From a virus (taxonomy: Duplodnaviria; Heunggongvirae; Uroviricota; Caudoviricetes), in the IMG/VR virus record IMGVR_UViG_3300032093_000003: a stretch of 64,000 bases of DNA; one strand, given 5' to 3'. Position numbers and translations under genes: made by a program. The notes beneath the pieces are model-generated. The model worked only from the letters and a program-made list of their open reading frames with translations, did not search any database and was not told the DNA's origin. Below, piece by piece: positions 11,053-56,947 of the stretch (position 1 is its first letter; the number at the start of each line of letters is the position of its first letter).

Positions 11053-11478
11053 CTATTTTTTTGTTTTATAAAAATTAAACAAGTTTTTATCTACCAATGA
11101 TTCGTTAATTATTGTTTTTATAATATCCGTAATTATTCTTTTTGTGTCTTTAGATTTAACATCAAATTTATTTTCAACATATAATGTTATTTCTAAATTC
11201 ATAAAAGATCTTTTTTCTTTTTTTATTCCTTTGGTTCTTATGTCTAAATCTACAATAGATTGTGGTTTAAAATTTTGATGATTTAAATCGTATATTAATC
11301 TTTTTATATCTCTCCTTGTTTTAAAAATCACACTATCAAAGTCATCATTTTCATTATTTGGTTGTAACCAAGAATTTAATTTTAAATAAATTGTTTTTAG
11401 ATTTTTAAAATCTACGGTTCCATATCCGATCTTAACATCATCGTATGTTCCCAAAGGAATAAACTTTCCTGTCTTCAT
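11053..11478 (-). CDS. hypothetical protein (head morphogenesis region)
   Basis: 141-aa ORF in head module. Confidence 0.3.
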   Translation of the reverse strand: MKTGKFIPLGTYDDVKIGYGTVDFKNLKTIYLKLNSWLQPNNENDDFDSVIFKTRRDIKRLIYDLNHQNFKPQSIVDLDIRTKGIKKEKRSFMNLEITLYVENKFDVKSKDTKRIITDIIKTIINESLVDKNLFNFYKTKK

Positions 11479-11768
11479 TATTTTTTACATATTAAAAATA
11501 TTTTATGGTGTAAATAAAAAATATGAAAAATTATCCACAAAACCAAATTTTTTTTGTATATATGGGTATAATTATAAAATATGATTATTATTGATTTAAC
11601 TAAAGAAAAAAATTTGGAGTCTGCGTTAAGAACCTATAAACATAAAGTTCAAAAAACAAAATTGATCCAAGAACTTAGAAAAAGAAAGGAGTTTGTAAAA
11701 CCTTCGGTAGAAAAAAGAGATTTGAAATTAAAAGCAATCCACACCAGTAAAATTAAAAATGGTCTCGA

Positions 11769-14367: not shown

Positions 14368-14419
14368 GTTTATAAATAGTCTTTTTATAAGATACGTGTT
14401 TTTTTTATCACTTTAAAGT

Positions 14420-16195: not shown

Positions 16196-16209
16196 ATACC
16201 TATAAATAC

Positions 16210-21471: not shown

Positions 21472-21831
21472 TTAATTAAGAGAAATTAGTTTTTCCAAAG
21501 TTTTTTTCTTTGAAATTGGTAATGTTAATTCTAACACACCATTTTCGACCTTACCTTCAATTTGATTTTCATTTACCTCATCAGGTAAAGTGTAGGTTTT
21601 TGTGAAGTTTGGTACAAATGTCGAACCACCTTCTTTTTCAAAAGTGATTTTCAAAATACCATCTTTTGTGGTGATCTTGAGATCACTCTTGGTTAGTCCC
21701 GGTACAGGAATAGTTACAACATAACCTGTTTCATCTTTATTAACTTTGGTTTTCGGAACATTAAGTTCTCTTTCAAATTCAAACATTTTATCAAATGCCT
21801 GAAAAAATGGGTCTTTAAATAATGTAATCAT
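21472..21831 (-). CDS. Hsp20/alpha-crystallin family small heat-shock protein
   Basis: ACD-like pattern DETGYVVTIPVPGLTKSDLKITTKDGILKITFEKE. Confidence 0.6.
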   Translation of the reverse strand: MITLFKDPFFQAFDKMFEFERELNVPKTKVNKDETGYVVTIPVPGLTKSDLKITTKDGILKITFEKEGGSTFVPNFTKTYTLPDEVNENQIEGKVENGVLELTLPISKKKTLEKLISLN

Positions 21832-22846: not shown

Positions 22847-24862
22847 ATGTCAGTAGATTTCATTGATGATGGGCAACCAACAAACCAAAATAAGAAAGGT
22901 AAGAGAAATTCTAATACACCTATATTAGATAATTTCTCAAGAGATTTGATAAAATTAGCACAAGAAGGTAAAATAGACCCTATTGTTGGTAGAGATAAAG
23001 AAGTAAAAAGAATTGCACAAATTCTTTCAAGAAAGAAGAAAAATAATGTTGTTATTGTGGGTGATGCCGGTGTGGGTAAATCGGCATTGGTTGAAAAATT
23101 GGCGCTATTGATTAATAAAGGTAACTGTCCTTCAAATCTTTTAGATAAAAGAATAATGTCATTGGATTTGACATCTTTAGTTGCGGGTACCAAGTATAGG
23201 GGTCAATTTGAAGAAAGGATTAAAGCGATATTAAATGAATTACAAGAAGCACCGAATGTAATTGTTTTTATTGATGAATTACACACAATGGTCGGTGCAG
23301 GTAATGCCAGCGGATCAATGGATGCAGCCAACATATTAAAACCCGCACTTGCTCGTGGTGAAATTCAATGTATTGGTGCAACAACTTTTGATGAATACAA
23401 AAAGAACATCGAAAAAGATTCTGCGTTAGTTAGAAGATTCCAAAAAATAATCTTACCGGAACCAACAGAAAAAGAAACTGTTGAAATTTTGGAAAATCTT
23501 AAAACATCATATGAGAATTTTCATAAAGTAAAATATGAAGATGGTGTTATTGATACTATTGTTAAAGTATCAAAAAGATTTATGACTGACAGACAATTTC
23601 CTGATAAGGCAATTGATATTATGGATGAATTAGGTTCAGAAAAGAAAATATCTAATAAAATACCTGAAAGTGTTGAAAAATTAAAACAAGAAGTTGAGGA
23701 AATAAAACAAAAAAAATTAGATGTCGTTAAAACACAGAATTATGAATTGGCAGCTAAATTAAGAGATACAGAAAAAACTGTTCTATCAAAATTAGAACAA
23801 GAAAAAGAAAAATGGTTGATAAACCAACAAAATAATAAAACACCAATTAGTATTGAAGATGTTTACCAGATAATTTCAAATATTACTGGTGTACCAATTA
23901 CAAAATTGGATTCAAAAGAAACAGAAAAACTTTTGAATTTAGATAAAATTTTAACATCTAAGGTTATTGGACAGAATGAGGCGATATCAATCATATCTAA
24001 ATGTATCAGAAGAAATAGAGTTGGTATTAAAGATACAAATAAACCAATCGGATCATTTATATTCTTAGGATCAACTGGTGTCGGTAAAACATATCTTGCA
24101 AAATCATTGGCTGAAATATTATTTGGTGATCCCGAAAAAATGATTCGTGTGGATATGAGTGAATTTATGGAGAAACACAATGTATCTAAATTAATTGGTT
24201 CACCTCCCGGTTACGTTGGATATGATGAAGGTGGTCAATTAACAGAAAAGGTAAAAAACAATCCATTTTCAGTTATATTGTTTGATGAAATTGAAAAGGC
24301 ACATAAAGATGTTTTCAATTTGTTGTTACAAATTTTAGATGAAGGACACTTAACCGATTCTTTTGGTAGAAAAGTTAACTTCACCAATACTTTGATTATT
24401 ATGACATCAAATGTTGGGGCTAAAAAAGTTTCTGAATTTGGTGGGGGAGTTGGTTTTGAAACATCTTCAACAAATAAACAAAAAGAAGAAGTTAAAAAAA
24501 CAATGATACAAAAATCATTGAAACAACAATTCAATCCTGAATTTTTAAATAGAATTGATGATGTAATCCTTTTCAATTCTTTAGACGAAAATGCACTAAA
24601 ACAAATTATTGGTGTTGAATTAAATAAATTAAAAAATAGATTAACTGAAAAAGGATACAAAGTTAATTTTGACGAATCAGTATCACAAAAGATATATGAA
24701 TTAAATCAACAAGAAGAATATGGAGCGAGACCCATAAAAAGAATAATACAAAATCTTTGTGAGGATTTCTTAAGTGAAGAAATTCTAAAAGGTACTATAA
24801 AAGAAAATGTTTTAGCAAATTTGAAAATTAAAGACGGAGAATTGGTAATTAGAAAAAAATAA
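22847..24862 (+). CDS. Hsp100/Clp ATPase (ClpB/ClpC-like, two AAA+ modules, no N-domain)
   Basis: NBD1 GDAGVGKSA / VIVFIDELHTMVGAG; NBD2 GSTGVGKT / SVILFDEIEKAHKDVFNLLLQILDEG; GSPPGYVGYDEGGQLTE signature; coiled-coil middle segment. Confidence 0.85.
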   Translation: MSVDFIDDGQPTNQNKKGKRNSNTPILDNFSRDLIKLAQEGKIDPIVGRDKEVKRIAQILSRKKKNNVVIVGDAGVGKSALVEKLALLINKGNCPSNLLDKRIMSLDLTSLVAGTKYRGQFEERIKAILNELQEAPNVIVFIDELHTMVGAGNASGSMDAANILKPALARGEIQCIGATTFDEYKKNIEKDSALVRRFQKIILPEPTEKETVEILENLKTSYENFHKVKYEDGVIDTIVKVSKRFMTDRQFPDKAIDIMDELGSEKKISNKIPESVEKLKQEVEEIKQKKLDVVKTQNYELAAKLRDTEKTVLSKLEQEKEKWLINQQNNKTPISIEDVYQIISNITGVPITKLDSKETEKLLNLDKILTSKVIGQNEAISIISKCIRRNRVGIKDTNKPIGSFIFLGSTGVGKTYLAKSLAEILFGDPEKMIRVDMSEFMEKHNVSKLIGSPPGYVGYDEGGQLTEKVKNNPFSVILFDEIEKAHKDVFNLLLQILDEGHLTDSFGRKVNFTNTLIIMTSNVGAKKVSEFGGGVGFETSSTNKQKEEVKKTMIQKSLKQQFNPEFLNRIDDVILFNSLDENALKQIIGVELNKLKNRLTEKGYKVNFDESVSQKIYELNQQEEYGARPIKRIIQNLCEDFLSEEILKGTIKENVLANLKIKDGELVIRKK

Positions 24863-25291: not shown

Positions 25292-25717
25292 ATGGAAGAA
25301 AAAAAATATGTCGGAGATTTAATTCTTTTAAGAGGAGTACCAGGTAGTGGTAAATCTACATTAGGTAAAACAATTTTAAGATGTTTAGCTTCAGATGATC
25401 CTGACGTTATTTCTGCGGATGATTTTTTTCTTGACGAAAAGGGTAATTATATTTTTGATTCCACAAAATTAAAAGAGGCACATGCACAATCACAACAAAG
25501 ATGTGCAACAAAAATGAAAAATGAATTTTCAAGAATTGTTGTCGCGAATACCTTTACACAGAAATGGGAAATGGACGCATATTACGAAATGGCGGAAAGA
25601 TACAATTACAGGGTTTTTAGTGTGATTGTTGAAAATAGACACGGAAATTTAAATATTCACGATGTTCCCGAAGAAAAAGTTGAACAAATGAAAAATAGAT
25701 TTGATGTTTCTCTTTAA
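25292..25717 (+). CDS. P-loop kinase (polynucleotide kinase-like, AAA_33-type)
   Basis: Walker A GVPGSGKST at N-terminus, small size, immediately upstream of RNA ligase. Confidence 0.55.
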   Translation: MEEKKYVGDLILLRGVPGSGKSTLGKTILRCLASDDPDVISADDFFLDEKGNYIFDSTKLKEAHAQSQQRCATKMKNEFSRIVVANTFTQKWEMDAYYEMAERYNYRVFSVIVENRHGNLNIHDVPEEKVEQMKNRFDVSL

Positions 25718-26787
25718 TGTTAGATATATTAGAAAAATATCACAATGATGGTCTGTTATTAAAACAGACACACCCAACATTACCTTTAACAATTTGGAAT
25801 TACTCACCAAAAGTTCAATATGATAACTTATGGGATGATGTTATTATTCAATGTAGAGGATTAGTTACCGATGTTGATGGTAATATTGTTGCTCGACCTT
25901 TTCCAAAATTTTTTAATTACGAAGAATTAAAACCCGAACAGATACCAAACGAACCATTTGATGTTTTTGAAAAATTAGATGGGTCTTTAGGTATATTATT
26001 TAATTATGAAGGTCAATGGGTATTTGCAACTCGTGGATCATTTACATCCGATCAAGCAAAAAGAGGATGGGAACTTCTTCAAAAATATGACTACCAAAGA
26101 TTAATTGAGGATAAAACATATCTATTTGAAATAATTTATAAAGAAAATCGTATTGTTGTTGATTATGATTATGAAGATCTAATAATGCTCGGTGTAATTG
26201 ACAATATCGATGGTTACGAATATAAAATATTTGACGAAAGAATCCATCTTGAAGGTGTTAGGTTCGTTAATATGTATAGAAATCTTGGATTTAAATTTGT
26301 TAAAAAATATGATGGTATAAAAGACTATTCAACCCTAAAAGAAATAATCAAAGATAATGAAGAGGGATTCGTTATTAGATTTCAAAATGGGTTTAGAATG
26401 AAAATAAAAGGTGTAGAATATTGTCGTCTCCATAAAATCCTAACAAACATCTCAAATAGAGATATTTGGGAATCTTTAAAAAATGGAGAATCATTAGATA
26501 AAATTATTGAAAAGGTACCCGATGAATTTTATAATTGGGTAAAAGAAACAAAAAATAAATTTGAGTCAGAATTTGATAAAATAAAAAAAGAATATGAATG
26601 GATATTCAAAGTTATTATGAGATCGGAAAATTCAAATGAAAGAAAAGTATTCGCACAATTTGCAATAAAATACAAATATTCTTCAATTCTATTTTCTATG
26701 TATGATAATAAACCATATAATCAAACAATATGGAAAATCCTATATCCTGAGTATTCGAAACCTTTTAAAAAAAATGATAATGAGTAA
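25717..26787 (+). CDS. RNA ligase (T4 Rnl1-like nucleotidyltransferase)
   Basis: Motif I lysine in FEKLDGSLG (compare T4 RnlA TKEDGSL); start overlaps kinase stop. Confidence 0.6.
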   Translation: MLDILEKYHNDGLLLKQTHPTLPLTIWNYSPKVQYDNLWDDVIIQCRGLVTDVDGNIVARPFPKFFNYEELKPEQIPNEPFDVFEKLDGSLGILFNYEGQWVFATRGSFTSDQAKRGWELLQKYDYQRLIEDKTYLFEIIYKENRIVVDYDYEDLIMLGVIDNIDGYEYKIFDERIHLEGVRFVNMYRNLGFKFVKKYDGIKDYSTLKEIIKDNEEGFVIRFQNGFRMKIKGVEYCRLHKILTNISNRDIWESLKNGESLDKIIEKVPDEFYNWVKETKNKFESEFDKIKKEYEWIFKVIMRSENSNERKVFAQFAIKYKYSSILFSMYDNKPYNQTIWKILYPEYSKPFKKNDNE

Positions 26788-29958: not shown

Positions 29959-30047
29959 GCCCCGGTGGTGGAACAGGTAGACACGCAGGACTTAAAATCC
30001 TGTGGACCGAAACGTCCGTGCGGGTTCGATTCCCGCCTGGGGCACCA
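29959..30047 (+). tRNA. tRNA-Leu (anticodon TAA), type II with long variable arm, CCA encoded
   Basis: Acceptor GCCCCGG/CTGGGGC, anticodon loop CTTAAAA, T-loop GGTTCGATTCC, 3' CCA. Confidence 0.7.
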
Positions 30048-30084
30048 ATACTATCGTTCTTTGACATATAAGGAGAAACAAATT

Positions 30085-30450
30085 ATGGAAATACTTTTCT
30101 TTATTTTAGGAATTACTTCCGTGGTGGTTATTGCGACCGCAATAGTTGCTGTGGTAAGTATTGTTAAGGTAACAAAGTTACAAACAAAAGTTAAAGATGG
30201 TTTTGATGGTGTTTATCATTCAATTGATAATACACATACTTCCATCGATAACACAAAAAGAGATACTCACGATAACATCGGAAGATTAAATGAAGAAGTT
30301 AATCGTAGAGTTGATAACCTCGAAAGAGAAACCTTCTCACAGTTAGATTCTCGATTAGATAAGTTGGAAACGAAGTTAAAAACTTACGTTCACACTAATG
30401 CAACCATGATGAAACTTGCATTAGATACACATAAAGCAACATCAAAATAA
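30085..30450 (+). CDS. membrane-anchored coiled-coil protein
   Basis: N-terminal TM helix (ILFFILGITSVVVIATAIVAVV) then heptad-like region; start placed at ATG 30085 because the ORF-track N-terminal extension overlaps tRNA-Leu. Confidence 0.4.
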   Translation: MEILFFILGITSVVVIATAIVAVVSIVKVTKLQTKVKDGFDGVYHSIDNTHTSIDNTKRDTHDNIGRLNEEVNRRVDNLERETFSQLDSRLDKLETKLKTYVHTNATMMKLALDTHKATSK

Positions 30451-30479
30451 AATAAAAGTCAAAAGAACGATAGTATTAA

Positions 30480-30898
30480 GGTTGAACGGGGAATGAAGAT
30501 TAAGACACCTGTTGGTGGTTGGTGATTATCTTCGGAGTTGGAACCAACATAGTAATGCCGTTCGTAAAAGAGGATGTCCACTCGACCATCTTCCTCTTTC
30601 CTTCTTGGTCTCATAGTTTAAGGGAAAAACGGTAGCCTTCTAAGCTTCTGATCCTAGTTCGAGTCTAGGTGAGACTACAAAGTTCCTGTAGGCCGCGGGA
30701 TCGTAGTTCCTCTATTCCACTGACAAAAGTCAAGAAAAGAGCCAGATCGTAAGCTGGATGGGTTGACAACTTTCCCACTGACTCGGAAAAAAGTTGTAAA
30801 TTTTAAGCGGGTCCTCGCTTCCCACGGTTTAATAGTACAAGGATAATGAAGGGAATAATACGACCCCTAAGACCTGCTTTTATTAAAAAAAATAAAAT
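30480..30898 (+). other. GC-rich structured noncoding region (~420 nt) with embedded tRNA-Arg-like gene
   Basis: No ORF, GC far above local background, multiple hairpins (e.g. TGTTGG...CCAACA, GAGGA...TCCTC). Confidence 0.3.
30607..30677 (+). tRNA. tRNA-Arg (anticodon TCT), candidate
   Basis: Acceptor GGTCTCA/TGAGACT, D-stem GTTT/AAAC, anticodon loop CTTCTAA (one stem mismatch), T-arm CCTAG-TTCGAGT-CTAGG. Confidence 0.45.
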
Positions 30899-41528: not shown

Positions 41529-43562
41529 TTAGAATTCTGCGTTTGAGTTAATCCATTTATATTTCATATCACCATCCCCTTTATCGACTTGTTTTGTTTC
41601 TACATATCCCTTATCTTCTAAATATTTGTTTAATATGTAGTAATCATTACCCGATAATTGTTTTCCTCTCCATACTGCGGCCAATCCTTTTTTAGGCCAT
41701 CTTTTTCTTTTAATTAATTTATTACTAGCCAATAATTCCTGTAATCTGTTTTCATCATATACAGGTTTAATTGGTGTTGGAGGAGGAGGTGCAGGTGTTG
41801 GTGCAACTGTAGGTGCTGGTGTTGCAGTAGGTCCTGGTACTGGTGTGCCGGTTGGACTTGGGTTTTTACCACAAATCTCTTTTTTAACATAATCGTAAAC
41901 TTCTTTAGTTATAGGATTAATTGGCATCTTCACACCTCTTTTTTCAATGATTTCCTCTCTAAGTTTCGCCATCGTTTTAGGTCCAAAATAACCTTTTTGA
42001 CTTGGTAAATCTAAACATGCTTGTATTTCGGCTATTTTTTCATTTCTACATCCGAATTCAAACGGGAAATCTTTACATTCTTTATATGGTACCGGTTCTT
42101 TTGTTGGTCTAGGTTCTTTTGTTGGACCAGGTACAGGAGGTACAGGACCATCTGTTGGTTTTGGTTGACCATCCCAAGTAATTTCAACACCACCTAAATC
42201 ACCGGTATTGGTACCACCTCCACCGCCTTTACCACTTTCAATTTGGTTTATTAATGAATACATCTCTTGTTTGGCTCTAACAGATGATGCGTTTACTGTG
42301 TAGATATAATCTAATGATTTTTTTAGACTACCACCACCTAAACCTGATGCTTGGTATAGTTTCAAGAATTCTTTACCATTAGCACTTCCAGCATATTTTT
42401 TAAGTAATGCTAATGCACTTTGTAAATCACTACCTGAAACAGGGAAATCCAATAAATCAATCATTGTTTCAACATCATTATCTATTGATGAAGTTGCTGC
42501 CTCATTTATATCTTCATCTATAGTTTGGATGTTACCACCTTTACATTTCCAACTACCCATGGCCCCCGTCTCTGTATTCATTACTCTACCATTTGTGAAA
42601 AATTGTACTCCTTTAGGATATTCACTTGATTTAACAATAACCCAAACTTGGCCAGTTGAACTTGTCTCTACTTTACCTTGTTGTTTATTTATTAAATCTT
42701 GAATACATGGTGCCCATTGTCCATCATTTGGTGGTGGTGTTGGTGGGAAATCTTCTGGAACAGTTTCTCCACTATCTGCCATCATCCACCATAAGGCCGC
42801 TGCAGTTAAACCACCGGCTAGACCCCATTTTAATATATCTTTCCAACTCTTTCCTTGTTTTATCCAAATAATTATTTTAATATACCAAGGTCTTGGAATT
42901 GGTGGTGGCGGTACCGGTGGTGGTTTTGGTAAAGTTATCTCTCCACCGCCAGTTTTTTTAATTCTTCTATTTATGGCTTTATCAACTGCTTTAGTTGATA
43001 CCCCGCCTCCCGATTTCATTTCTCTCGCACCTTTTTGAAGTAATGCCTCCGCTTCTTTAGCGGACATTCCATATGTTTTTTGTAATGTTTCAGATGCCAA
43101 TTTAAAGTTTTCAGGATTTGCTGGCATTGCACCTCCTTTAGGATAAACCTTTTTTAGAATTTCTTTAAATGTTGGTGATTCACCAATAAGACCTTTTAAT
43201 TTTAGTGCAATTTCAGGAACTTTATTTGCTTGTTTAATTACAAGAAATTTCTCAGCAGTACTGAGAGCCCCTGCTTCACCCGGTGCCTTTTTCATTGCGA
43301 TTAATAACTCGTCAGCGGTTTTAAATCTAGAAAGTGCGGGTATTTCATTTTTTAATGTGGAAAATAAACCTTTTTCTGATTTTAAAATACTACCGATTGC
43401 TTCAATACCTTGTTGAGCAACTTTTGTTACTTGTTCTTCAATATTTTCAGGATTTTCTTCTTCTGATACCTCGATATTGGGATCTTCATTTTCTAATTTA
43501 TCATTAACTGATTCAACTAATGATATCATTTTTCTAATTAATAATGCGTCTCTATTTTCCAT
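41529..43562 (-). CDS. large hypothetical protein with TM segment, P/T-rich linkers and a peptidoglycan-binding-like motif (possible virion ejection/tail protein)
   Basis: 677 aa; KGYFGPKTMAKLREEI resembles PG_binding_1 core; PTGTPVPGPTATPAPT linker. Confidence 0.3.
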   Translation of the reverse strand: MENRDALLIRKMISLVESVNDKLENEDPNIEVSEEENPENIEEQVTKVAQQGIEAIGSILKSEKGLFSTLKNEIPALSRFKTADELLIAMKKAPGEAGALSTAEKFLVIKQANKVPEIALKLKGLIGESPTFKEILKKVYPKGGAMPANPENFKLASETLQKTYGMSAKEAEALLQKGAREMKSGGGVSTKAVDKAINRRIKKTGGGEITLPKPPPVPPPPIPRPWYIKIIIWIKQGKSWKDILKWGLAGGLTAAALWWMMADSGETVPEDFPPTPPPNDGQWAPCIQDLINKQQGKVETSSTGQVWVIVKSSEYPKGVQFFTNGRVMNTETGAMGSWKCKGGNIQTIDEDINEAATSSIDNDVETMIDLLDFPVSGSDLQSALALLKKYAGSANGKEFLKLYQASGLGGGSLKKSLDYIYTVNASSVRAKQEMYSLINQIESGKGGGGGTNTGDLGGVEITWDGQPKPTDGPVPPVPGPTKEPRPTKEPVPYKECKDFPFEFGCRNEKIAEIQACLDLPSQKGYFGPKTMAKLREEIIEKRGVKMPINPITKEVYDYVKKEICGKNPSPTGTPVPGPTATPAPTVAPTPAPPPPTPIKPVYDENRLQELLASNKLIKRKRWPKKGLAAVWRGKQLSGNDYYILNKYLEDKGYVETKQVDKGDGDMKYKWINSNAEF

Positions 43563-43579: not shown

Positions 43580-44863
43580 TTATTGCATTTTATTTAATAA
43601 ATTTGCCATATCATCCTCCACACCTTGTTTTATTTGTTCATCGGGTATTGCACTTGCGATTTTTGTTAAGTCTTCCTGTGATGCTACCGATCCATCTTCT
43701 CCTTTATTTTTACCGGCAAAATATTGTGCTCCCTTTTCCATACCCTTCATCGCCACAGCGGTACCCCCACCCCATGTTAAACCTTTTCTTACTGCCGTTG
43801 CGGTACTAACAGGACCTTTACCCTTTAGTGCGGCGTTTATTGGTTTTGTAAAATCTTTTTGAATGAATTTTTTACCAAGTGAGGTTAAAGTCTCGGCACC
43901 TTGAACTCCCGCCTTTTGTGCTGCAGGTGCAAAAACATTTTTCATATTTTCTAAAACTTTACCAACACCTGATTTAAATGAAGAAATCATACCTGCTGCT
44001 TTTGGTCCGAAAGCCTTAGCGATCCATTCTAATGGTTTTATTAATATATTCATTATACCACCAAGACCTTTACTTAAAACAGTAATGATTGGTTGTAAAA
44101 TTTTTCCACCAACTTTCATAACACTACCACCCGCAGCTTTAAAGGCCGCTTTAAGACCTTTGGCAGCACCAGAAAAAAGAACACCCGCTAAACATACTGC
44201 GAGATCAATATAAGTCCATACACTTTTTGAATCAGTTTTACCACTTAATAATTGATAAACTTTCCAAACAAATAGAATACCCCAAACTATACCTGTGGCT
44301 AATTTACCAATACCTAATGCGGTTAATGCCACGTCCAAACCGATACCAACAGGACTCATCATGAAATGTTCTATTTTTTCCATTATCCATGGTAATCCTT
44401 TATTTAACACCCATGCACCCGCATCTTTTATACCTTGCCAAGCTTTTCCCGCAACTTCTTTTGTTTTATCCCAAAGATCACCAAAAAAACCCTCAGCAAG
44501 TGTTGGATATTTTTGAGATATTTTATTTTTTACAAATTCCCAAGAATCAGTTATAACTTGTTCAGTTGATAATGAATTGATTGATTCTATGATTAAATTT
44601 CTACCAAATTTTATTTCATATTCCATTATTATATTCATATCCGATTCCATCAAACGATATAATAATTTTCTTATATTACTAAATAACTGTGTAGATTCCA
44701 TTATTGAATGTCTATAAATGAATATACTTTGATTTTTAAACATTTCACAAATAAAAAATGGATTTGGGTTATTAATATCAGTATATAACCCTGTTTCTAC
44801 ATCAATAATTCGATTTAAACCCGAAACATACCTACCATCTCTTGTGAATAATAAATCTTCCAT
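43580..44863 (-). CDS. hypothetical membrane protein (A/G/K-rich with TM helices)
   Basis: 427-aa ORF. Confidence 0.3.
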   Translation of the reverse strand: MEDLLFTRDGRYVSGLNRIIDVETGLYTDINNPNPFFICEMFKNQSIFIYRHSIMESTQLFSNIRKLLYRLMESDMNIIMEYEIKFGRNLIIESINSLSTEQVITDSWEFVKNKISQKYPTLAEGFFGDLWDKTKEVAGKAWQGIKDAGAWVLNKGLPWIMEKIEHFMMSPVGIGLDVALTALGIGKLATGIVWGILFVWKVYQLLSGKTDSKSVWTYIDLAVCLAGVLFSGAAKGLKAAFKAAGGSVMKVGGKILQPIITVLSKGLGGIMNILIKPLEWIAKAFGPKAAGMISSFKSGVGKVLENMKNVFAPAAQKAGVQGAETLTSLGKKFIQKDFTKPINAALKGKGPVSTATAVRKGLTWGGGTAVAMKGMEKGAQYFAGKNKGEDGSVASQEDLTKIASAIPDEQIKQGVEDDMANLLNKMQ

Positions 44864-44883
44864 GTTATATAAATATATTGATT

Positions 44884-45141
44884 TTACTTAAGTGGATTTC
44901 CTTTACCTCTTTTTAATATAGATCCAACAACATCACTCCATTTAGTTACACCAACTTGATTTGATGGTCCTCTAGTTACACCACTTTCCCATTTACCAAC
45001 TTGTGGATATCCCGAACCCCCACCACTTGATGATGTACCCGCACTAGGTGCTGCTGCCGCATCTTGTTCACTTATCTCTTCTTCCTCCAAATCTTTAGAG
45101 AGAATTAGTTTAAGTTGTTTTTCATTTATTAAAACTTTCAT
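44884..45141 (-). CDS. hypothetical protein
   Basis: 85-aa ORF. Confidence 0.25.
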   Translation of the reverse strand: MKVLINEKQLKLILSKDLEEEEISEQDAAAAPSAGTSSSGGGSGYPQVGKWESGVTRGPSNQVGVTKWSDVVGSILKRGKGNPLK

Positions 45142-45191
45142 CTACTATAAATACTTAAATTTTCTTGTTTTTTATACCATAAACTAAAAAA

Positions 45192-45575
45192 TTATTCATC
45201 ATATATTGTCTCATCAATTTTTGAAAACATTTTAACAAACTGTCCCGCTTTTGCATTAGCTTCATCTTCAATCTCACCACCAATATCTGGCGGCTTAACT
45301 TTTAAACGACCTTGTTCGTATTGTTTATGATGGACAAGTTCATGTGCTAAACTTCTCATTACATCAACAAGTGCCCTATTTTTAGCATTAACTTTAATTA
45401 TTTTATTTTTTTTAGTGTAGTCATAGCTAGCAGTAGTCTTTAATTCTTTTCTACCATTTTGAATAGAAATAGTTGGCACTGTTTTTAAATCCAATTCCTT
45501 TTTAACGAATTTTACAAATTCTTGTAATTTCTTCTTTTTTTCGTCAGATAAAAATTCCATAAATATAAATATCAC
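45192..45575 (-). CDS. small zinc metallopeptidase-like protein (HExxH)
   Basis: SLAHELVHHKQYEQG motif. Confidence 0.4.
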   Translation of the reverse strand: MIFIFMEFLSDEKKKKLQEFVKFVKKELDLKTVPTISIQNGRKELKTTASYDYTKKNKIIKVNAKNRALVDVMRSLAHELVHHKQYEQGRLKVKPPDIGGEIEDEANAKAGQFVKMFSKIDETIYDE

Positions 45576-45811
45576 AAACTTACCCGTTCGGGTAAATCGT
45601 TTTCTTTTAAATATTCAGATAATAATTCAATTACAAATTCTTCATCAATATCTAATATATCGTGTTCAGATATTATCGTTGGACTATAATATTCTATGGA
45701 ATCAAATTCAATGTCTAATACTCTATAAAAATTATCACCGTCTTCTTCGGTTGAGAATTCAACATGTAGAGTACTTTTTTCTTCTGTGTAGTAATACTCG
45801 TGTATAACCAT
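45572..45811 (-). CDS. hypothetical acidic protein
   Basis: 79-aa ORF. Confidence 0.25.
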   Translation of the reverse strand: MVIHEYYYTEEKSTLHVEFSTEEDGDNFYRVLDIEFDSIEYYSPTIISEHDILDIDEEFVIELLSEYLKENDLPERVSL

Positions 45812-46571: not shown

Positions 46572-46799
46572 TTATTTACTTACACGTTTTCGCAATAAAA
46601 AATAAAAAATAAAAAATAGACCCGATATAAAATACATAATAATATTGGCTCTCCAAATGTTTCCGGTTATAGACATTAACGTATATTGTACAACATCGAA
46701 CCCAAATGGGAGAAAGAACATCGCTAACATTAGAGACGTATCTTTGTATAACACCAATCTTTTTTCCTTGTTTTTTATTGTTTTTAGTCGATTCACCAT
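46572..46799 (-). CDS. small membrane protein (possibly glycan-pathway associated)
   Basis: 75 aa, two TM helices, immediately downstream of glf. Confidence 0.25.
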   Translation of the reverse strand: MVNRLKTIKNKEKRLVLYKDTSLMLAMFFLPFGFDVVQYTLMSITGNIWRANIIMYFISGLFFIFYFLLRKRVSK

Positions 46800-46849
46800 C
46801 GGTATCCATGTATGAATAATTTATCTAATTATGTCTTAATGACTTTTAA

Positions 46850-47950
46850 CTATAAATATGTCTCTATTTCTGTTTTAACTTTTTTTAACGCGGAGGCGAT
46901 TACTTGGTGCATATCATAATACTTATATTCCGCCAACCTACCACCAAAAATGACATTATTTTCCATTTTTGTTAAATCTTGGTACTTGTTAAATATATTT
47001 TGATTTATTAAATCATTTATTGGGTAATATGGTTCTTCATTTTTATTCCATTCAATTGGATATTCTTTTGTTATTATTGTTTTAGAAGAAATATCATTAT
47101 TAAAATGTTTGTGTTCAATAATTCTCGTAAAAGGTATTTCAATGTCTGTAAAATTTATAACTGAATGACCTTGATAATTTTCTTTGTCGAGTATTTCAGT
47201 TTCAAATCTCAATGGTCGATACTCTAAATCACCATAACAATAATTATAAAATTTGTCTACCGGTCCTGTATAAATTATTTTTCTAGATAATGAATTGAAA
47301 TATTCTCTATTTTCAAAATAGTCAACATTTTTTCGTACTTCAATATTTTCTAATAATTTTTCAAATAATTCTGTATAACCGTTTTTTGGAATTCCTTGGT
47401 ATGTGTCAAAAAAATAATTATTATCGTATGTGAATCTTACAGGTAATCTTTTTATGATAAAAGGTGGTAATTCTTTTGGGTTTTTCATCCATTGTTTTTC
47501 AGTGTAACCCTTAATTAATTTATCATATACATCTCTACCTACTAATGATAATGCTTGTTCTTCTAAATTATTGGGTACACCTCCATATCTTTGACTTTCT
47601 ATTATTTTTATCGCTTCTTCCGGATTATTGACCCCCCACAGTTTATTAAACGTAAACATATTGAAGGGTAAAGAGTATAGTTGATCTTTATGTGACGCCA
47701 AAACATGATGTCTATAATTGTTAAACTCAACAAATTTATTTACATAATCCCAAACTTCTTTATCTGAAGTATGAAATATATGTGCACCATACTTATGTAC
47801 ATTAATTTCTAAATTTTTTTCAGTATAACAATTACCACCAATATGATCTCTTTTTTCTATAACCAATACTTTTTTTCCGACATTGGTTAATTCTCTGGCA
47901 AAAATAGATCCAAAGAGACCCGATCCAACTATTAAATAATCATACATCAT
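46850..47950 (-). CDS. glf: UDP-galactopyranose mutase
   Basis: N-terminal FAD-binding YDYLIVGSGLFGSIFARELT ... KVLVIEKRDHIGGNCYTE typical of Glf. Confidence 0.85.
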   Translation of the reverse strand: MMYDYLIVGSGLFGSIFARELTNVGKKVLVIEKRDHIGGNCYTEKNLEINVHKYGAHIFHTSDKEVWDYVNKFVEFNNYRHHVLASHKDQLYSLPFNMFTFNKLWGVNNPEEAIKIIESQRYGGVPNNLEEQALSLVGRDVYDKLIKGYTEKQWMKNPKELPPFIIKRLPVRFTYDNNYFFDTYQGIPKNGYTELFEKLLENIEVRKNVDYFENREYFNSLSRKIIYTGPVDKFYNYCYGDLEYRPLRFETEILDKENYQGHSVINFTDIEIPFTRIIEHKHFNNDISSKTIITKEYPIEWNKNEEPYYPINDLINQNIFNKYQDLTKMENNVIFGGRLAEYKYYDMHQVIASALKKVKTEIETYL

Positions 47951-48584
47951 TAATTCTTTTTACCGGCCTGTTGTATGCATTTACGAATATATTATCATAA
48001 CCAAGAAATCCACCAATATTATCACTAACACTATCTATTTGAGAAATTAACAATGGATATCCACCATATTTAATAAAATTATTTTGATAAATCCACGCGT
48101 CTATTGGGACATCAACTTCTGGGTCGTATTTTAACATTTTTTCATATGCCTGTTTATTGACAGCATATGCGTGAACACAATAACATCCATGGATATACAT
48201 TAAATTATCATCAATTAAGTTTATTGGGTTATCAAAAATATTTGCACTAAAATAATAAACATCCCAATTATCTATTTTCGAAAGACTATCTAATGATTTT
48301 TCTATAAGTTCCTCCGCACCTTCTTTGAAAAAAACATCATCCTCAAAAATTAAAATATTTTCTAAATCATTATTGTAGGCATATTCAATAATATTTCTGT
48401 GTGATTTACCGCTGGCAATTACACAATTTTGAGGTGTTTTAATATCCGCCTTTATTGCTGAATATCTTTTTACAAATTTATCTAAATCAACTCTCGATAG
48501 TTCTCGTTTCATGTGATCTTGTCTATCAACTCTATCGTCTAAATTTATATAAAAAGCGTCTTTAAAAAATTCTTGTATTTTCAT
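47940..48584 (-). CDS. glycosyltransferase (family 25-like)
   Basis: N-terminal FYINLDDRVDRQDHMKRELSRV pattern resembling GT25 LPS glycosyltransferases; operon with glf. Confidence 0.4.
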   Translation of the reverse strand: MKIQEFFKDAFYINLDDRVDRQDHMKRELSRVDLDKFVKRYSAIKADIKTPQNCVIASGKSHRNIIEYAYNNDLENILIFEDDVFFKEGAEELIEKSLDSLSKIDNWDVYYFSANIFDNPINLIDDNLMYIHGCYCVHAYAVNKQAYEKMLKYDPEVDVPIDAWIYQNNFIKYGGYPLLISQIDSVSDNIGGFLGYDNIFVNAYNRPVKRINDV

Positions 48585-48590
48585 TTTTTT

Positions 48591-49820
48591 TTAAATTTTA
48601 AAATATGATGGTCTTTTCCATTCTAAATCTTCAGAGTATGGCCAAATTAATAGTTGTGTTGGTATTTGCCTATTTTTGGATCTATAAAATTTAAATGTAC
48701 GAGAATTTATTTTACCATCGATTATATCTTTATTTTCGTTATAAGTTAAATCTTCTCTATGTATTGCAATACCCCCCTGATCTAACACAATCATCGCCCA
48801 AAATCTAACATTATTTATTTTTTCAATTTTATCATAATCCCAAGAAATTGTGTCATTGAAATAAACTTGTTCATTGTCCCAACCTTCTTCAGAATTTGAA
48901 CATGGAGGTTCGATACCCTTCTCAGTATCTTTATGTACAATACATTTAACAAAATCGATTCCAGAATAATCGGTATACTCTTGTAATGTTCTTTCTTTAC
49001 CTAAACCATACATACCTAAACCAAACAAATCATTTCTACCAAGTAAACAATCTAATCTATCATGTGCAACTTTATTTAAATTCCCCCAATTATTATGGTC
49101 ACCCCAATGTTTAGGGTTATCTAACCTTTGATAAAAATGATGTACAATTGTTCTATGAGAATTATATATATTATAACCGTGTGTGAAATACCTAATCGCC
49201 ATGGCCGCTTCCTCACCCGAAAAATAAAAATCAGGATCGTATGGTACTTCTCTGTTTATTTGACCAGGACCAAAGATAAAACCTGCAGATATATAAACAC
49301 CTTTGACAGGAAAATTCTTAGATTGCCAATCTTCCATATTCATTGGTCTACTCATCGGATACTTATGATCGAACCTATAAACATTACATATTTGTGGTAC
49401 GTTATACCATTTACTTTCATCCATTTCTGGATTATAGTTTGGGGGGTATCCAGTAATGATTGCTTTTTCGTCATTTAGTGACTCCCAAATGTTTATCAAC
49501 TTTTCATCCCAATTTTCAACAAATCTCATATGTGAATCTATCTGAAGTGAAAATTTCTCATCTTTCCACAACATTTGTGTTATATTTCTGGCCCAACACG
49601 CTCCTTTTGATTCTTTGTAATCAAAATCAATTATTTCTATATTTTCATTATTTTTTATTTCATCTAAATTATCCCATATATCATCTTTTGAATGTTGCCA
49701 ACATATAACAAACCTCAAATTCTCGGGAAATTTAGATCTACTAATCGCATGTTTTATTGTTGGCAATAACTCTTTATCTCTATACGATGCGATTTGAACA
49801 AAAATTTTATTATTACTCAT
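48591..49820 (-). CDS. putative glycosyltransferase (GT-A-like; candidate galactofuranosyl- or hexosaminyl-transferase)
   Basis: 409-aa ORF in operon with glf and GT25-like gene. Confidence 0.3.
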   Translation of the reverse strand: MSNNKIFVQIASYRDKELLPTIKHAISRSKFPENLRFVICWQHSKDDIWDNLDEIKNNENIEIIDFDYKESKGACWARNITQMLWKDEKFSLQIDSHMRFVENWDEKLINIWESLNDEKAIITGYPPNYNPEMDESKWYNVPQICNVYRFDHKYPMSRPMNMEDWQSKNFPVKGVYISAGFIFGPGQINREVPYDPDFYFSGEEAAMAIRYFTHGYNIYNSHRTIVHHFYQRLDNPKHWGDHNNWGNLNKVAHDRLDCLLGRNDLFGLGMYGLGKERTLQEYTDYSGIDFVKCIVHKDTEKGIEPPCSNSEEGWDNEQVYFNDTISWDYDKIEKINNVRFWAMIVLDQGGIAIHREDLTYNENKDIIDGKINSRTFKFYRSKNRQIPTQLLIWPYSEDLEWKRPSYFKI

Positions 49821-49914
49821 ATGTCTTAAACATAAATAAAAATTGTTAAAAAGTAAAACACTATTATTTTTTTTTTCTATTTAATTTTTTTATTTTTATC
49901 TAAAATAATTACAA

Positions 49915-50283
49915 ATGAATAAAGTTTATCAACCAGTCGTATTAGAAAGATCAAATGAAATTGTTCAAAGTTTGGTCGAATCTGGATTTTTTAAAGATTA
50001 TGAATTACCAAGTACCGATTTTGCTAAAGAATATCTGTGTGAAAAATTGACAGAAAAGTTCATAGAAAATGGTTCAGATATAAATGATACGATTTTCACT
50101 GAAAACGAATTTGAGAATATTTTAAGAGTAATTGTAACTGGATCAATTTTAGGTGAATTAAAGAGAAAAGGATATATAAATTCTTATGAAGATGAAAATA
50201 CGGAAGAAACTTTTTTTCTAACCGAAGATGGTAAAGAAATGTTAAAAAACCTAAAAAGTACAGATGATAAAACTAAAGAATAG
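49915..50283 (+). CDS. hypothetical protein
   Basis: 122-aa ORF. Confidence 0.3.
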   Translation: MNKVYQPVVLERSNEIVQSLVESGFFKDYELPSTDFAKEYLCEKLTEKFIENGSDINDTIFTENEFENILRVIVTGSILGELKRKGYINSYEDENTEETFFLTEDGKEMLKNLKSTDDKTKE

Positions 50284-50613
50284 TTATTTCTTTTTTTCAT
50301 CAACTTGTTGACTAAGACTGTTCTTTTTATGTTGTCTTATTTTTTCTTTTAATTGCGATAAAATTTTTTGTGTGTTAGATAAATTTGTGGAAATAGTTGA
50401 AACTCTACCATTAGATAATGTTTTTAAACCTTCAGGAATACTATCCTCTAATTTTCTAAATTCCTTTATTGTTTCAGATAATGAGTTTTGTAACTCCTCA
50501 ATTTTATATTGCACTCTATTATATTCCTGTCTATTAACTTTGGACGTTTCCTCATTTAATAGGTCATTTAACACTTTTTTTACCGTTTCTTCTGATATTA
50601 ATCTACCTTCCAT
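50284..50613 (-). CDS. hypothetical coiled-coil protein
   Basis: 109-aa ORF. Confidence 0.3.
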   Translation of the reverse strand: MEGRLISEETVKKVLNDLLNEETSKVNRQEYNRVQYKIEELQNSLSETIKEFRKLEDSIPEGLKTLSNGRVSTISTNLSNTQKILSQLKEKIRQHKKNSLSQQVDEKKK

Positions 50614-50693: not shown

Positions 50694-51773
50694 ATGAGAA
50701 ATGTTGAATTTACATTATTTGATTTTGATGATCTACTAATTGAACCTGCACATATTTCACCAATCAGGTCCAGAAAAGAAATTAACCCAAAGTATGATAA
50801 TGGTTACTATCCATTGATGACCGCTCCGATGGATACGGTCATTTCCAAAGATAATCACAAACTTTTTGGTAATTTGGGTATTAGATCTGTAGTCCCAAGA
50901 GGTGAGGGTTATTATGATCAAAATTATAATGACACACACTTTAATTCATATGGATTAGATGAATTTAATGAAATTTTCATAAATGGTGATGTGGAAATTC
51001 TAACAGATTCCAAAATTTATGTGTTAATTGATATTGCAAATGGCCATATGAGGGCGTTATACGATTCCGCTAAGACCGCAAAGGAAAAATATGGTGATAA
51101 AATGGTCTTAATGATTGGGAATGTTGCAAACCCCAAGACTTTTGCGGAATATTGTTCAATAGGTGTCGATTATATTAGAATTGGTATAGGTAATGGTGGT
51201 GGTTGTTTAACAACTGTTCAGACTGGTGTTGGATTCCCAATGGCATCACTAATTGAAGAGTGTTATGATGTTAAAAAATATATGGAATTTCCAAATATTA
51301 AGATAGTTGCGGATGGAGGATTCAAATCATATTCTGACATCATAAAGGCACTCGCGTTAGGTGCGGATTATGTTATGTTAGGATCAATATTAAACAAATC
51401 TCTCGAAAGTTCGGGTGAAACAACTAGATTACGACAATCACATAAACCACATTTTGATCAACACATAGTGATAGACCAATATTCCGAAGAAGCTAAAAAA
51501 ATGTTTGAGGCAGGTACACCATTATTCAAAACATTTAGAGGAATGAGCACAAAAGAAGTACAAAAATCGTGGGGAAAAGAAGAATTAAAGACATCTGAAG
51601 GTGTTGTTAGAACACATAAGGTTGAATACACATTAGAAGGGTGGATTAATAATTTTGATTCATATTTGAGATCTGCGATGAGTTATACAGGAAAAAAAGA
51701 ACTCCACGAATTTATCGGTGGAGTTCAGTTGAATTTCATAAGTCAAAATTCCTATAAGAGATTTAGTAAATAA
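50694..51773 (+). CDS. IMP dehydrogenase/GMP reductase-family enzyme (GMP reductase-like)
   Basis: Catalytic loop GIGNGGGCLTTVQTGVGFP and phosphate-binding ADGGFKSYSDIIKALALGADYVMLGS. Confidence 0.7.
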   Translation: MRNVEFTLFDFDDLLIEPAHISPIRSRKEINPKYDNGYYPLMTAPMDTVISKDNHKLFGNLGIRSVVPRGEGYYDQNYNDTHFNSYGLDEFNEIFINGDVEILTDSKIYVLIDIANGHMRALYDSAKTAKEKYGDKMVLMIGNVANPKTFAEYCSIGVDYIRIGIGNGGGCLTTVQTGVGFPMASLIEECYDVKKYMEFPNIKIVADGGFKSYSDIIKALALGADYVMLGSILNKSLESSGETTRLRQSHKPHFDQHIVIDQYSEEAKKMFEAGTPLFKTFRGMSTKEVQKSWGKEELKTSEGVVRTHKVEYTLEGWINNFDSYLRSAMSYTGKKELHEFIGGVQLNFISQNSYKRFSK

Positions 51774-52079: not shown

Positions 52080-52439
52080 ATGTCAGAAGAAAAATCTACA
52101 GTAAATCCCGCAATTAAGGAAATCGAGGAAAAATACCCCGAAATGACTAAAGAATTCAAAAGAATTATGAGAGAACAATATGAAATGTTCTGTAAAAAAC
52201 AATTAACTTACGGTACAGGAAATATTTCCGTGGGAACGAGGTTGGAAACACCCGAAGAAGTTAAATTATCCCAAACAGGTCTTTGGTTTAGAAAAATGGA
52301 CAAAATAAACAGATTAAAACAGTTAGTTTTGTTGAATAAAGAGGATGTAGTTAGTGAAACCGTAGAAGATACGTATTCAGACCTATCGGTTTACTCAATT
52401 ATCTCACAAATCGTTAGTAGGGGTAAATGGGGAAAATAA
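52080..52439 (+). CDS. hypothetical protein
   Basis: 119-aa ORF followed by terminator. Confidence 0.3.
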   Translation: MSEEKSTVNPAIKEIEEKYPEMTKEFKRIMREQYEMFCKKQLTYGTGNISVGTRLETPEEVKLSQTGLWFRKMDKINRLKQLVLLNKEDVVSETVEDTYSDLSVYSIISQIVSRGKWGK

Positions 52440-53245: not shown

Positions 53246-53437
53246 TATCTCTAGTTCGGGTATTTCTCTTAAAAACAATAAAAGATCATCCTCATTATGT
53301 CTGTGTTTTACCACTAAATCACAATTCCAATAATTTTTAATATCTTGGACAAATCCTTCCTTAATTCTATCATTTTTTACCTTTCTATAGATCCAATATA
53401 ATCTATTTTGGTAATTTACAAATTCTTTAGGATACAT
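53237..53437 (-). CDS. hypothetical small protein
   Basis: 66-aa ORF. Confidence 0.25.
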   Translation of the reverse strand: MYPKEFVNYQNRLYWIYRKVKNDRIKEGFVQDIKNYWNCDLVVKHRHNEDDLLLFLREIPELEILN

Positions 53438-54008
53438 TGTTATTAATTATATAATTAAAAATATCCACATGTGTCGTATCATTGACTTCAAATTCAACAA
53501 ATGGGATATTATAGGTTATTAGTTTATTTTTGATGTCCCCATCAATTTCTTTTGCCTCTTCTAATTTTTGAAATCTACCATTTTCATCATACGAACTATC
53601 GTTTCTCGTTAGTAATATATTAAAATTCCTATATTTTTTAAATAATTGTAATATAAAAAAATCAAAAGAATTATCATAAAACATTGCAGGATATTCTGGT
53701 TCAGTGTTATATCTTTCTTTGTAGACCATACCCAAAATTATTGGAGAATCTACTATAATATATTTGACTTTATTATATAACCTACTTATGTTTCTATGTT
53801 GATTTGCGGTAATGTAGAATTGATCTTTAATTGCCGAATAATTCTCTTCCCAAGAGACTATTTTAGGAAATTCATAAGTTAACTCAACATCCATGTGTTG
53901 TTTTTTCATTTCAGTAAATAAACCTGCCGATTGTGTTGATTTACCTATACCAGGACCACCAAAAAAATTTATTATTAAACTCATAAGATAATATAACAAA
54001 TTAGACAC
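53427..54008 (-). CDS. P-loop (d)NMP kinase-like protein
   Basis: FGGPGIGKSTQ Walker A resembling adenylate/thymidylate kinase P-loops. Confidence 0.45.
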   Translation of the reverse strand: MSNLLYYLMSLIINFFGGPGIGKSTQSAGLFTEMKKQHMDVELTYEFPKIVSWEENYSAIKDQFYITANQHRNISRLYNKVKYIIVDSPIILGMVYKERYNTEPEYPAMFYDNSFDFFILQLFKKYRNFNILLTRNDSSYDENGRFQKLEEAKEIDGDIKNKLITYNIPFVEFEVNDTTHVDIFNYIINNNVS

Positions 54009-56321: not shown

Positions 56322-56351
56322 AAAAAAGGGAGGTTAACCTCCCTTTTTTAT
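56322..56351. terminator. bidirectional intrinsic terminator between convergent genes
   Basis: AAAAAAGGGAGGTTAACCTCCCTTTTTTAT. Confidence 0.55.
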
Positions 56352-56947
56352 TTAAGTAAACTATAGTACTCTTTAAAGTGTTTAATTCTATCAGGTAATC
56401 CAATAGTTCCACCATTTACTCTTTTCGTAATTGAAGTAACATCAACATCAGTAGCACCTTTATCGGCTAATGTGTTTAATCCATTTTTACCCCAAAACCA
56501 AGCCGCAGATAGTAATGGATATTTTGTCGCAACTAAATCAGGATTTTCTAAAATGTTTTCAGTAACAACTTTATCAAATTCAGTATAATTTGCTTTACCG
56601 GTTAATTGGATATAACCTCTGCCGCGAAATTTATAACCTTCTTTTGTTGGTTCAGCACCATTACCCATTCTTCCACCATAAACTCTCGATGCAATTAGTT
56701 CAGGTTTTCTTTCATACTGTTCTGCAAGTGCCTGAGTTGGGAAATACTTTTTAAACGTAGTTAATAAACCTTTTGCCCCGTAATTAAGGTTCTCGTTTAC
56801 AAACTTAAATCCACCACTTTCATGTCCACACTGAGCAAGAAAATGAGATAATCTCAAGGGTGTGTTTATGTTAAATTTAGCCATAACATCGGGAATTTGT
56901 CCGATCACTGTGTCAGGAACATGTCCTTTTAATTTGTTTAAATCCAT
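56348..56947 (-). CDS. endolysin, glycoside hydrolase family 19-like
   Basis: FLAQCGHESGGF motif characteristic of phage GH19 lysins; adjacent holin/spanin-like genes. Confidence 0.75.
   Translation of the reverse strand: MDLNKLKGHVPDTVIGQIPDVMAKFNINTPLRLSHFLAQCGHESGGFKFVNENLNYGAKGLLTTFKKYFPTQALAEQYERKPELIASRVYGGRMGNGAEPTKEGYKFRGRGYIQLTGKANYTEFDKVVTENILENPDLVATKYPLLSAAWFWGKNGLNTLADKGATDVDVTSITKRVNGGTIGLPDRIKHFKEYYSLLK

Follow-up and report, generated by a model that had tools for sequence, protein, structure and literature searches.

A 64-kb stretch (the window, to which positions refer unless a locus is named) of the ~287-kb phage genome represented by IMG/VR record IMGVR_UViG_3300032093_000003 was examined. 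At 46572–49820 it contains four tightly packed open reading frames (ORFs) on the minus strand, with the coordinates of the original prediction, which had described a glycan-modification operon from the DNA letters alone. They encode a 409-amino-acid (aa) glycosyltransferase (GT) of the PF11397/GT60 type, a 214-aa GT25-family transferase, a 366-aa UDP-galactopyranose mutase (Glf) and a 75-aa membrane protein. The reading that we favour, with a probability of about 0.45, is that these genes direct a stepwise glycosylation in the cytoplasm, most likely of a phage (virion) protein, in which an N-acetylhexosamine (HexNAc) is attached first and galactose or galactofuranose (Galf) second. Glf would supply UDP-Galf; the GT60-like enzyme would place the HexNAc, by family analogy N-acetylglucosamine (GlcNAc), directly on hydroxyls of a macromolecular acceptor; and the GT25 enzyme would add beta-linked galactose, in this phage probably galactofuranose. 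With serine or threonine (or hydroxyproline, Hyp) residues of phage proteins as acceptors, the outcome would be a mucin-type-like decoration of virion proteins, and the glycan would vary between related phages, the gene content of the site being swapped. We infer the donors, the order of the steps and the acceptor from family and fold.

Identity of the operon products

The first gene (48591–49820, minus strand) encodes the soluble 409-aa protein, which matches PF11397, 'Glycosyltransferase (GlcNAc)', at 243 bits (cut-off 21), a family carried by all 120 homologues listed for it. The protein consists of a catalytic domain (residues ~1–295) and a tryptophan-rich C-terminal beta-domain (residues ~300–409, window 48591–48920). 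Its structure model, with a predicted local distance difference test (pLDDT) score of 94, has a GT-A fold and is closest to the mucin-type polypeptide N-acetylgalactosamine (GalNAc) transferases of family GT27, the two best structural neighbours both being enzymes that glycosylate polypeptides. A sequence search of the PDB, with either the single sequence or a profile, gave no match. The DxH motif D95-S96-H97 and H228 are invariant across 40 sequences, and by comparison with GT27 the residues D95, H97 and H228 probably bind the metal. The earlier label 'GT-A-like' thus holds for the fold and the DxH motif, but the protein belongs to PF11397/GT60 and is not a generic or GlfT-like GT2 enzyme.

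The characterised members of the PF11397/GT60 family known to us glycosylate polypeptides. The eukaryotic GT60 enzymes, Gnt1 of Dictyostelium and Toxoplasma acting on Skp1-Hyp and the mucin pp-alphaGlcNAcT of Trypanosoma cruzi, share PF11397 with the 409-aa protein, which is only distantly related to them in sequence. The GT-A fold with a DxH metal motif is the same in GT60, in the GT27 polypeptide GalNAc-transferases (ppGalNAc-Ts) and in the phage enzyme. Gnt1 is cytoplasmic and soluble, and the 409-aa protein is likewise soluble; the ppGalNAc-Ts end in a lectin domain, whereas the phage protein carries a different, family-specific Trp-rich beta-module. We propose that the 409-aa protein is an initiating HexNAc transferase. 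No prolyl hydroxylase was seen near the operon.

No Pfam or PDB match was found for the Trp-rich domain. It is also C-terminal in HtrL_YibB proteins, forms part of an HtrL/domain/GT25 fusion and of methyltransferase-like and GT34-like proteins (both recognised by weak Pfam matches), and occurs alone in ORFs of ~100–160 aa. In total, 111 cluster representatives were detected at E ≤ 1e-3; examples are L064 (14897–15184), P0211, P0227, P0225 and P0218. Since different enzymes of one pathway share this module, the best explanation is that it serves them all for docking or for recognising the acceptor.

The second gene (47940–48584, minus strand) encodes the soluble 214-aa protein. It matches PF01755 at 41.1 bits (gathering threshold 24), as do all of its 47 homologues, has a GT-A fold nearest to solved GT25 enzymes and contains an acidic DxD-type motif, E81-D82-D83, all of which bears out its earlier designation as a GT25-like glycosyltransferase. 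Its best GT25 relative is a collagen hydroxylysine (Hyl) galactosyltransferase. Known GT25 enzymes include COLGALT1, the collagen Hyl beta-galactosyltransferase, the LgtB/Lic2A-type beta-1,4-galactosyltransferases of Neisseria and Haemophilus, and mimivirus R655. Compared with these, the phage protein is a minimal single domain of 214 aa and, unlike them, it is paired with Glf, so a furanose donor is possible. By analogy, we propose an extending beta-galactosyltransferase, possibly a galactofuranosyltransferase.

The third gene (46850–47950, minus strand) encodes Glf, which reaches 435 bits against TIGR00031, an NCBIfam equivalog, over residues 2–361 (curated equivalog cut-off 303.75 bits) and also matches PF03275 (266 bits) and PF13450 (77 bits). 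The FAD-binding Rossmann motif GxGxxG is present (IVGSGLFG, residues 7–14), the protein is colinear with E. coli Glf 1I8T (503 bits, E 4e-150, residues 2–362 against 1–364), and twelve further solved Glf sequences match it at E ≤ 1e-84. By every sequence test run it is a genuine UDP-galactopyranose mutase, which confirms the FAD-binding and Glf signatures noticed at the outset. As such, it is predicted to enable the phage to convert host UDP-galactopyranose (UDP-Galp) to UDP-Galf, and the earlier claim of UDP-galactofuranose synthesis is supported, since Glf passes the family tests. Among cultured phages, DNA matches of any closeness were found only for glf, in unrelated Streptococcus, Lactobacillus and Enterococcus phages; the present phage thus has no close relative in culture.

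The fourth gene (46572–46799, minus strand) encodes the basic 75-aa protein (isoelectric point, pI, 10.4), which matched no Pfam, NCBIfam or PHROG family. Of the small protein with two transmembrane (TM) segments that had been predicted, a membrane protein with two hydrophobic segments (~22–42 and ~50–70) stands, the first segment being strong and the second weaker. Its occurrence is sporadic and confined to the 3' end of sister-phage islands, the L037 and L084/L090 islands ending in homologues that share 61% and 51% identity with it. Hydropathy indicated no TM segments in the other three proteins. All three enzymes are acidic, the transferases having pI values of 5.6 and 4.8 against 9.05 for the T4 beta-glucosyltransferase (beta-GT), a comparison that we take as weak evidence only.

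Operon layout

The gene layout, with 6 bp between the genes of the 409-aa and 214-aa proteins, an 11-bp overlap between the GT25 gene and glf, and 50 bp between glf and the 75-aa gene, suggests one transcription unit. Upstream, a 94-bp AT-rich divergent intergenic region (49821–49914), the presumed promoter region, separates the operon from an oppositely oriented gene for a 122-aa winged-helix-like protein. Downstream, a terminator-like hairpin with a 12-bp stem and a T-run (46564–46537, minus strand) follows immediately on the 75-aa ORF and its stop codon, in the gap between two convergent genes. A sigma-70 scan scored no better than shuffled sequences. The sequence TATTTATG at 49838–49831 (minus strand), 10 nt before the ATG of the 409-aa gene, agrees with TATTTATA at 7 of 8 positions, in very AT-rich DNA, and the 75-aa gene is preceded, at ~50 nt, by an exact copy of TATTTATA. 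The octamer TATTTATA is found 3–20 nt 5' of many start codons in gene orientation, including those of the portal, terminase, prohead protease and scaffold-like genes (for example at 14371–14378, 16201–16208, 10271–10278, 44868–44875 and 45146–45153), and TATAAATA or its complement occurs 32 times in the window where 16 occurrences are expected. The octamer may be a phage-specific, perhaps late, promoter with very short leaders. The GC content of the operon (0.27–0.29) is the same as in the rest of the window, and a recent foreign insertion is therefore unsupported.

A variable island at a fixed site

Sister phages keep both flanks of the operon: upstream, homologues of 49915–50283 and 50284–50613, the GMP-reductase-like gene and the DUF1599 gene; downstream, homologues of 45572–45811, 45192–45575 and 44884–45141. 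Between these flanks lies a co-directional operon of variable content, forming an island of 4.1–10.5 kb of which the present phage has the smallest version. The first gene always belongs to PF11397. The genes that change encode GT25-like, GT2-like, GT17-like, GT10 fucosyltransferase-like and HtrL_YibB-type proteins, FkbM, CmcI and Methyltransf_24 methyltransferases, a DegT aminotransferase, a second PF11397 paralogue, and Glf. The sister flanks are 48–76% identical to those of this phage and the first island gene only 37–39%, while in L014 the relation is reversed (transferase 71%, flank 35%). Because the identities diverge in both directions, we conclude that island and backbone are exchanged independently.

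Glf is present in only three island types (this phage, L014 and L034/L035) and is accompanied by transferases in each. Together with the GT-A folds and the EDD and DxH motifs of the two transferases, this agrees with the original prediction of a mutase working with glycosyltransferases. The position of the GT60-like gene as the constant first gene of a variable island, and the Trp-rich domain that its product shares with other enzymes, argue that this enzyme would perform the committed first step.

Phage glycosyltransferase clusters as such are already known. The literature searched contained no account of an exchangeable glycan island at a fixed site with a constant GT60/GT27-like first gene, a shared putative docking domain and, as here, a predicted Galf supply; searches on PF11397, and on GT60 with phage, returned nothing relevant, and those on capsid and phage glycosylation returned nothing on the present system.

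Distribution and partners of PF11397 genes

Viral contigs very commonly carry homologues of PF11397, which were confirmed in at least 588 stretches in IMG/VR, including giant-virus bins. Separate searches gave 3,458 protein clusters and 420 matches among GTDB species genomes. In L007, L009 and L014 the PF11397 gene has a GT25-like neighbour, and P0023 and P0027 are fusions of the two. L008, from a different T4-like phage, pairs it with a gene for a GT7 beta4GalT-like enzyme, next to fibre-like genes. Of 85 viral loci, 62 encode an HtrL_YibB-type protein along with the PF11397 enzyme; the present phage has none. XacN1, Xoo-sp13 and 13 metagenomic loci have a NodU-type carbamoyltransferase as the partner. 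GlcNAc residues serve as acceptors for members of the GT25, GT7 and NodU families, GT25 and GT7 members galactosylating them, and such partners fit a HexNAc placed first by the PF11397 enzyme.

In the cultured Xanthomonas jumbo phages, the PF11397 gene is followed by the large NodU-type gene at 7998–11715 (L012, XacN1) and 7998–11693 (L013, Xoo-sp13). In Jiulongibacter (L117, 7971–13151) the order is PF11397, NodU-type carbamoyltransferase and HtrL. The pair of PF11397 and NodU-type genes recurs in Bacteroidota chromosomes. From the gene content, this pairing predicts carbamoylated glycans. Genes for a subtilase (S8) and a trypsin-like protease are found on the opposite strand, 4–5 kb downstream of the PF11397 gene, in L021 (12114–13025), L023 (17408–18148) and ~12 further viral loci.

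Catalytic-only PF11397 proteins occur within clusters for type VI secretion, a machine that resembles a phage tail, of Yersinia aldovae (L173, 2875–11656) and Burkholderia dolosa (L157, 5826–13067), in the order TssF, TssG, TssA, fimbrial/MrkD-like protein, transferase, and then OmpA-domain or Rhs proteins. This location suggests that the family serves protein-related functions inside bacterial cells. Along with the soluble, cytoplasmic nature of the phage transferases, which suits a host-protein target, it bears on the idea that the operon glycosylates a host cytoplasmic protein or small molecule in a takeover or toxin-like manner. We consider this very improbable, as multi-enzyme islands exchanged between phages and fit for methylated or carbamoylated oligosaccharides are not needed for a single inactivating modification, and no candidate host target was found.

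The acceptor

A phage protein is favoured as the acceptor because GT60 family members and the structural neighbours of the 409-aa protein act on polypeptides, because the best GT25 relative glycosylates collagen, and because the enzymes are soluble and come without lipid-carrier machinery, no lipid-carrier or export genes being present in the Pfam-annotated surroundings. It is favoured also because glycosylation of virions by phage-encoded transferases is established in mycobacteriophages (Freeman et al. 2023, as cited in PMC12619734). Segments rich in Ser, Thr and Pro are present in the 677-aa protein encoded at 41529–43562, where a stretch of 30 residues is 73% S/T/P, in head-module proteins encoded at 17574–18491 and 8966–10252, and in 58417–59214; as glycan acceptors they are suggestive only.

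The 677-aa protein (minus strand) has proline/threonine-rich, mucin-like linkers, such as PSPTGTPVPGPTATPAPTVAPTPAPPPPTP, and a segment that, judged by eye, resembles a peptidoglycan-binding motif. The adjacent gene (43580–44863, minus strand) encodes a glycine-rich 427-aa protein with hydrophobic segments. Neither protein belongs to a Pfam or PHROG family, and either these genes or glf are split or truncated in some metagenome variants (L001, L003 and L004).

Several points weigh against glycosylation of a virion protein by these enzymes. To our knowledge, no phage PF11397 protein has been characterised, and we know of no GT25 enzyme with UDP-Galf as donor. Moreover, because GT25 orthologues at 61–63% identity occur in islands without glf (L007 and L009), it is not certain that the GT25 protein is the enzyme that consumes UDP-Galf. 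The island sits outside the head and tail modules, amid small unassigned genes and the DUF1599, GMP-reductase-like and AAA_28 genes, and in XacN1 and Xoo-sp13 it adjoins replication genes. Finally, Rhizobium phage RL38J1, which encodes its own Glf, carries galactose-glucose(-glucose) chains on 5-hydroxycytosine (PMC13326640), and an enzyme that hydroxylates or hydroxymethylates bases could lie elsewhere in the present genome, since 64 kb of ~287 kb are visible.

These last points lead to DNA hypermodification, a possibility that the original prediction had left aside, in which the transferases would glycosylate a hydroxylated or hydroxymethylated pyrimidine, with Glf supplying a base-proximal galactofuranose, and thereby protect the genome from restriction or CRISPR nucleases. 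T4-like phages are the classic DNA glycosylators, and many phage GT-A enzymes place mono- to trisaccharides on 5-hydroxymethylcytosine (bioRxiv 10.1101/2023.12.21.572611). In addition to the neighbours mentioned above, the window contains a dCMP deaminase gene; one HtrL protein has a weak, sub-threshold match to TAGT; and diversifying selection on DNA modifications would likewise explain a variable island. However, neither transferase matches the TET-associated/JGT-like DNA GT-A family or the T4 glucosyltransferases (beta-GT), the closest folds and families of both act on proteins, and their acidity sets them apart from T4 beta-GT. Queries with E. coli ThyA and T4 gp42 found no ThyA family member in the window, which covers ~22% of the genome, or within ~10 kb of the GT60-like gene in 93 loci, homologues of gp56 and beta-GT were not found in the window or in the 93 related ~20-kb loci, and Tet_JBP did not appear in the precomputed Pfam listings of the window and related loci. 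By comparison, the Pyle preprint (bioRxiv 10.1101/2023.12.21.572611) has ThyS or 5mYOX near the DNA GT on ~35% of its contigs.

The comparison with RL38J1 and the Pootjesviridae (PMC13326640) points both ways. They are contractile-tailed and have their own Glf, proposed to supply UDP-Galf, together with several GTs, like the present phage. However, the RL38J1 pathway requires a ThyA-family 5hodCMP synthase and a nucleotide kinase, and its transferases were matched to a glucosyltransferase, a mannosyltransferase and a UDP-GlcNAc 2-epimerase-like fold, compared with GT60 and GT25 here. Furthermore, sister islands of up to ~10 genes, with a fucosyltransferase-like gene and several sugar O-methyltransferases, exceed what the reported DNA glycans, trisaccharides at most, would call for (PMC13326640; bioRxiv 10.1101/2023.12.21.572611). 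On balance, we regard DNA as the less likely acceptor but as a serious rival to protein.

The original prediction had also considered furanosylation of the host O-antigen or capsule. In this case, Galf units would be added to lipopolysaccharide (LPS) or lipooligosaccharide (LOS), capsule or another surface glycan of the host, for example blocking superinfection or altering recognition by grazers. The exclusion of other phages and the evasion of host defences, both suggested in the original prediction, are speculative. GT25 enzymes are known chiefly from LOS/LPS biosynthesis, the HtrL_YibB family that many sister islands contain comes from LPS core clusters, and the GT60-like/carbamoyltransferase/HtrL module of Jiulongibacter adjoins genes for a UDP-glucose dehydrogenase and an epimerase; a small membrane protein closes the operon, and the GT clusters of large cyanomyoviruses are usually read as envelope modification (PMC12801897). 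On the other hand, the transferases are soluble and without membrane anchors, and the window showed no initiating phosphoglycosyl transferase, bactoprenol-linked transferase, flippase, polymerase, ligase or component of Gtr type. Seroconverting Gtr-type O-antigen modules consist of membrane transferases and flippases, whereas the only membrane protein here is the 75-aa protein. The phage has a lytic T4-like architecture, with no integrase seen among the annotated genes of the window, and is not a seroconverting prophage. Both the family and the fold of the first, constant enzyme suggest that it glycosylates polypeptides directly, and a docking-type domain common to several enzymes is more in keeping with a defined macromolecular acceptor than with an envelope glycan. 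Envelope modification is thus weak, less supported than a protein or DNA acceptor, and in our estimate distinctly improbable.

The phage and its other genes

The source is an uncultured lytic T4-like jumbo phage from freshwater metagenomes. Two contigs, of 286,787 and 286,645 bp, encode identical proteins, as do several metagenome records at JGI, ENA and NCBI; we take some of these records to be lake samples. The gene set is T4-like, with a Gp23-type capsid protein, a T4-type portal, a large terminase and an S77 prohead protease. Among cultured phages, Microcystis phage Mel-JY01 has the nearest capsid protein (41% identity, 58% of the query covered). The genes of the window lack Shine-Dalgarno sequences, which fits a Bacteroidota-type host, and the host is probably a member of the Bacteroidota. 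Such hosts are also predicted for the freshwater 'moraphages' (PMC12619734).

An array of 23 tRNA genes (29959–37205, plus strand) covers nearly all amino acids, with two genes each for Met, Leu, Arg and Gly, and coincides with GC peaks at 34–37 kb. A T4-type RNA ligase 1 gene (25717–26787) and an AAA_33 kinase-like gene (25292–25717) near the array suggest tRNA repair. The head-gene module includes a gene for ribosomal protein S21 (11581–11772, plus strand), and chaperones are represented by an HSP20 small heat-shock protein (21472–21831, minus strand) and a 671-aa ClpB/ClpA-like AAA+ protein (22847–24862, plus strand). The genes related to nucleotides are a GMP-reductase/IMPDH-family gene (50694–51773), a DUF1599 ('nucleotide modification associated domain 1') gene (52080–52439) and the dCMP deaminase gene (6150–6614); the AAA_28 gene lies at 53427–54008. 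Large genes of unassigned family occupy 57268–63145 and continue past the right window edge at L094 1580–8742; one of them carries F5/8 type C (discoidin, carbohydrate-binding) domains, and a GH19 endolysin-like gene (56348–56947) adjoins the run. Together, these genes are probably a fibre/baseplate module.

Comparison with known systems and implications

The mucin glycans of T. cruzi consist of GlcNAc extended by Galf or Galp. GlcNAc and Galf are the sugar pair that the present operon would make. Among phages, the virion glycosylation operons of mycobacteriophages (Freeman et al. 2023, as cited in PMC12619734) resemble the present system in their soluble phage GTs and in content that varies between relatives, and O-methyltransferases are found in the present sister islands. 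The mycobacteriophages differ in lineage and infect Actinobacteria, whereas the present phage probably infects Bacteroidota, and their glycans are reported to have been demonstrated on the C-termini of capsid and tail-tube proteins, whereas those of the present system are predicted.

Large aquatic T4-like phages offer a second comparison. The cyanophages S-SCSM1, S-SCSM2R and P-SSM2 have GT clusters classed as 'cell wall synthesis and modification' (PMC12801897), and the moraphages are freshwater phages with core glycosyltransferases and with chaperone genes, like the present phage (PMC12619734). Both groups carry many GT genes (GT10, GT25 and GT2 among them) and nucleotide-sugar enzymes. In the parts that were searched, these accounts list genes and describe no conserved initiator of the PF11397 family, no variable island at a fixed site and no docking domain common to several enzymes.

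In a broader sense, the island may represent an undescribed mucin-type-like O-glycosylation system spread over hundreds of tailed phages from aquatic habitats, as well as some giant viruses and bacteria, a proposal that we put forward tentatively and consider rather doubtful. It would comprise a GT60/GT27-like initiator that begins the glycan on phage proteins themselves, in the cytoplasm, with a docking domain shared by downstream enzymes, and an exchangeable island giving a strain-specific virion glycan coat, here of HexNAc and Galf. If such a system exists, close relatives of the initiators of eukaryotic Skp1 and mucin O-glycosylation would be found in bacterial viruses.

With a virion protein as the acceptor, variable coats of glycan would be a routine product of large environmental phages, made by a cytoplasmic mucin-type-like pathway of their own. 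Such a coat would bear on adsorption, particle stability, sticking to mucus and particles, and recognition by hosts and grazers. A protein acceptor would also imply a large reservoir of GT60/GT27 relatives in viruses of prokaryotes, and possibly a GT25 enzyme with a furanose donor. Should DNA be the acceptor, the anti-restriction chemistries of phages would gain two new transferase families and a modification that contains Galf. With either acceptor, a swap-in island at a fixed position with one constant transferase is a practical handle for mining and testing the diversity of phage glycans.

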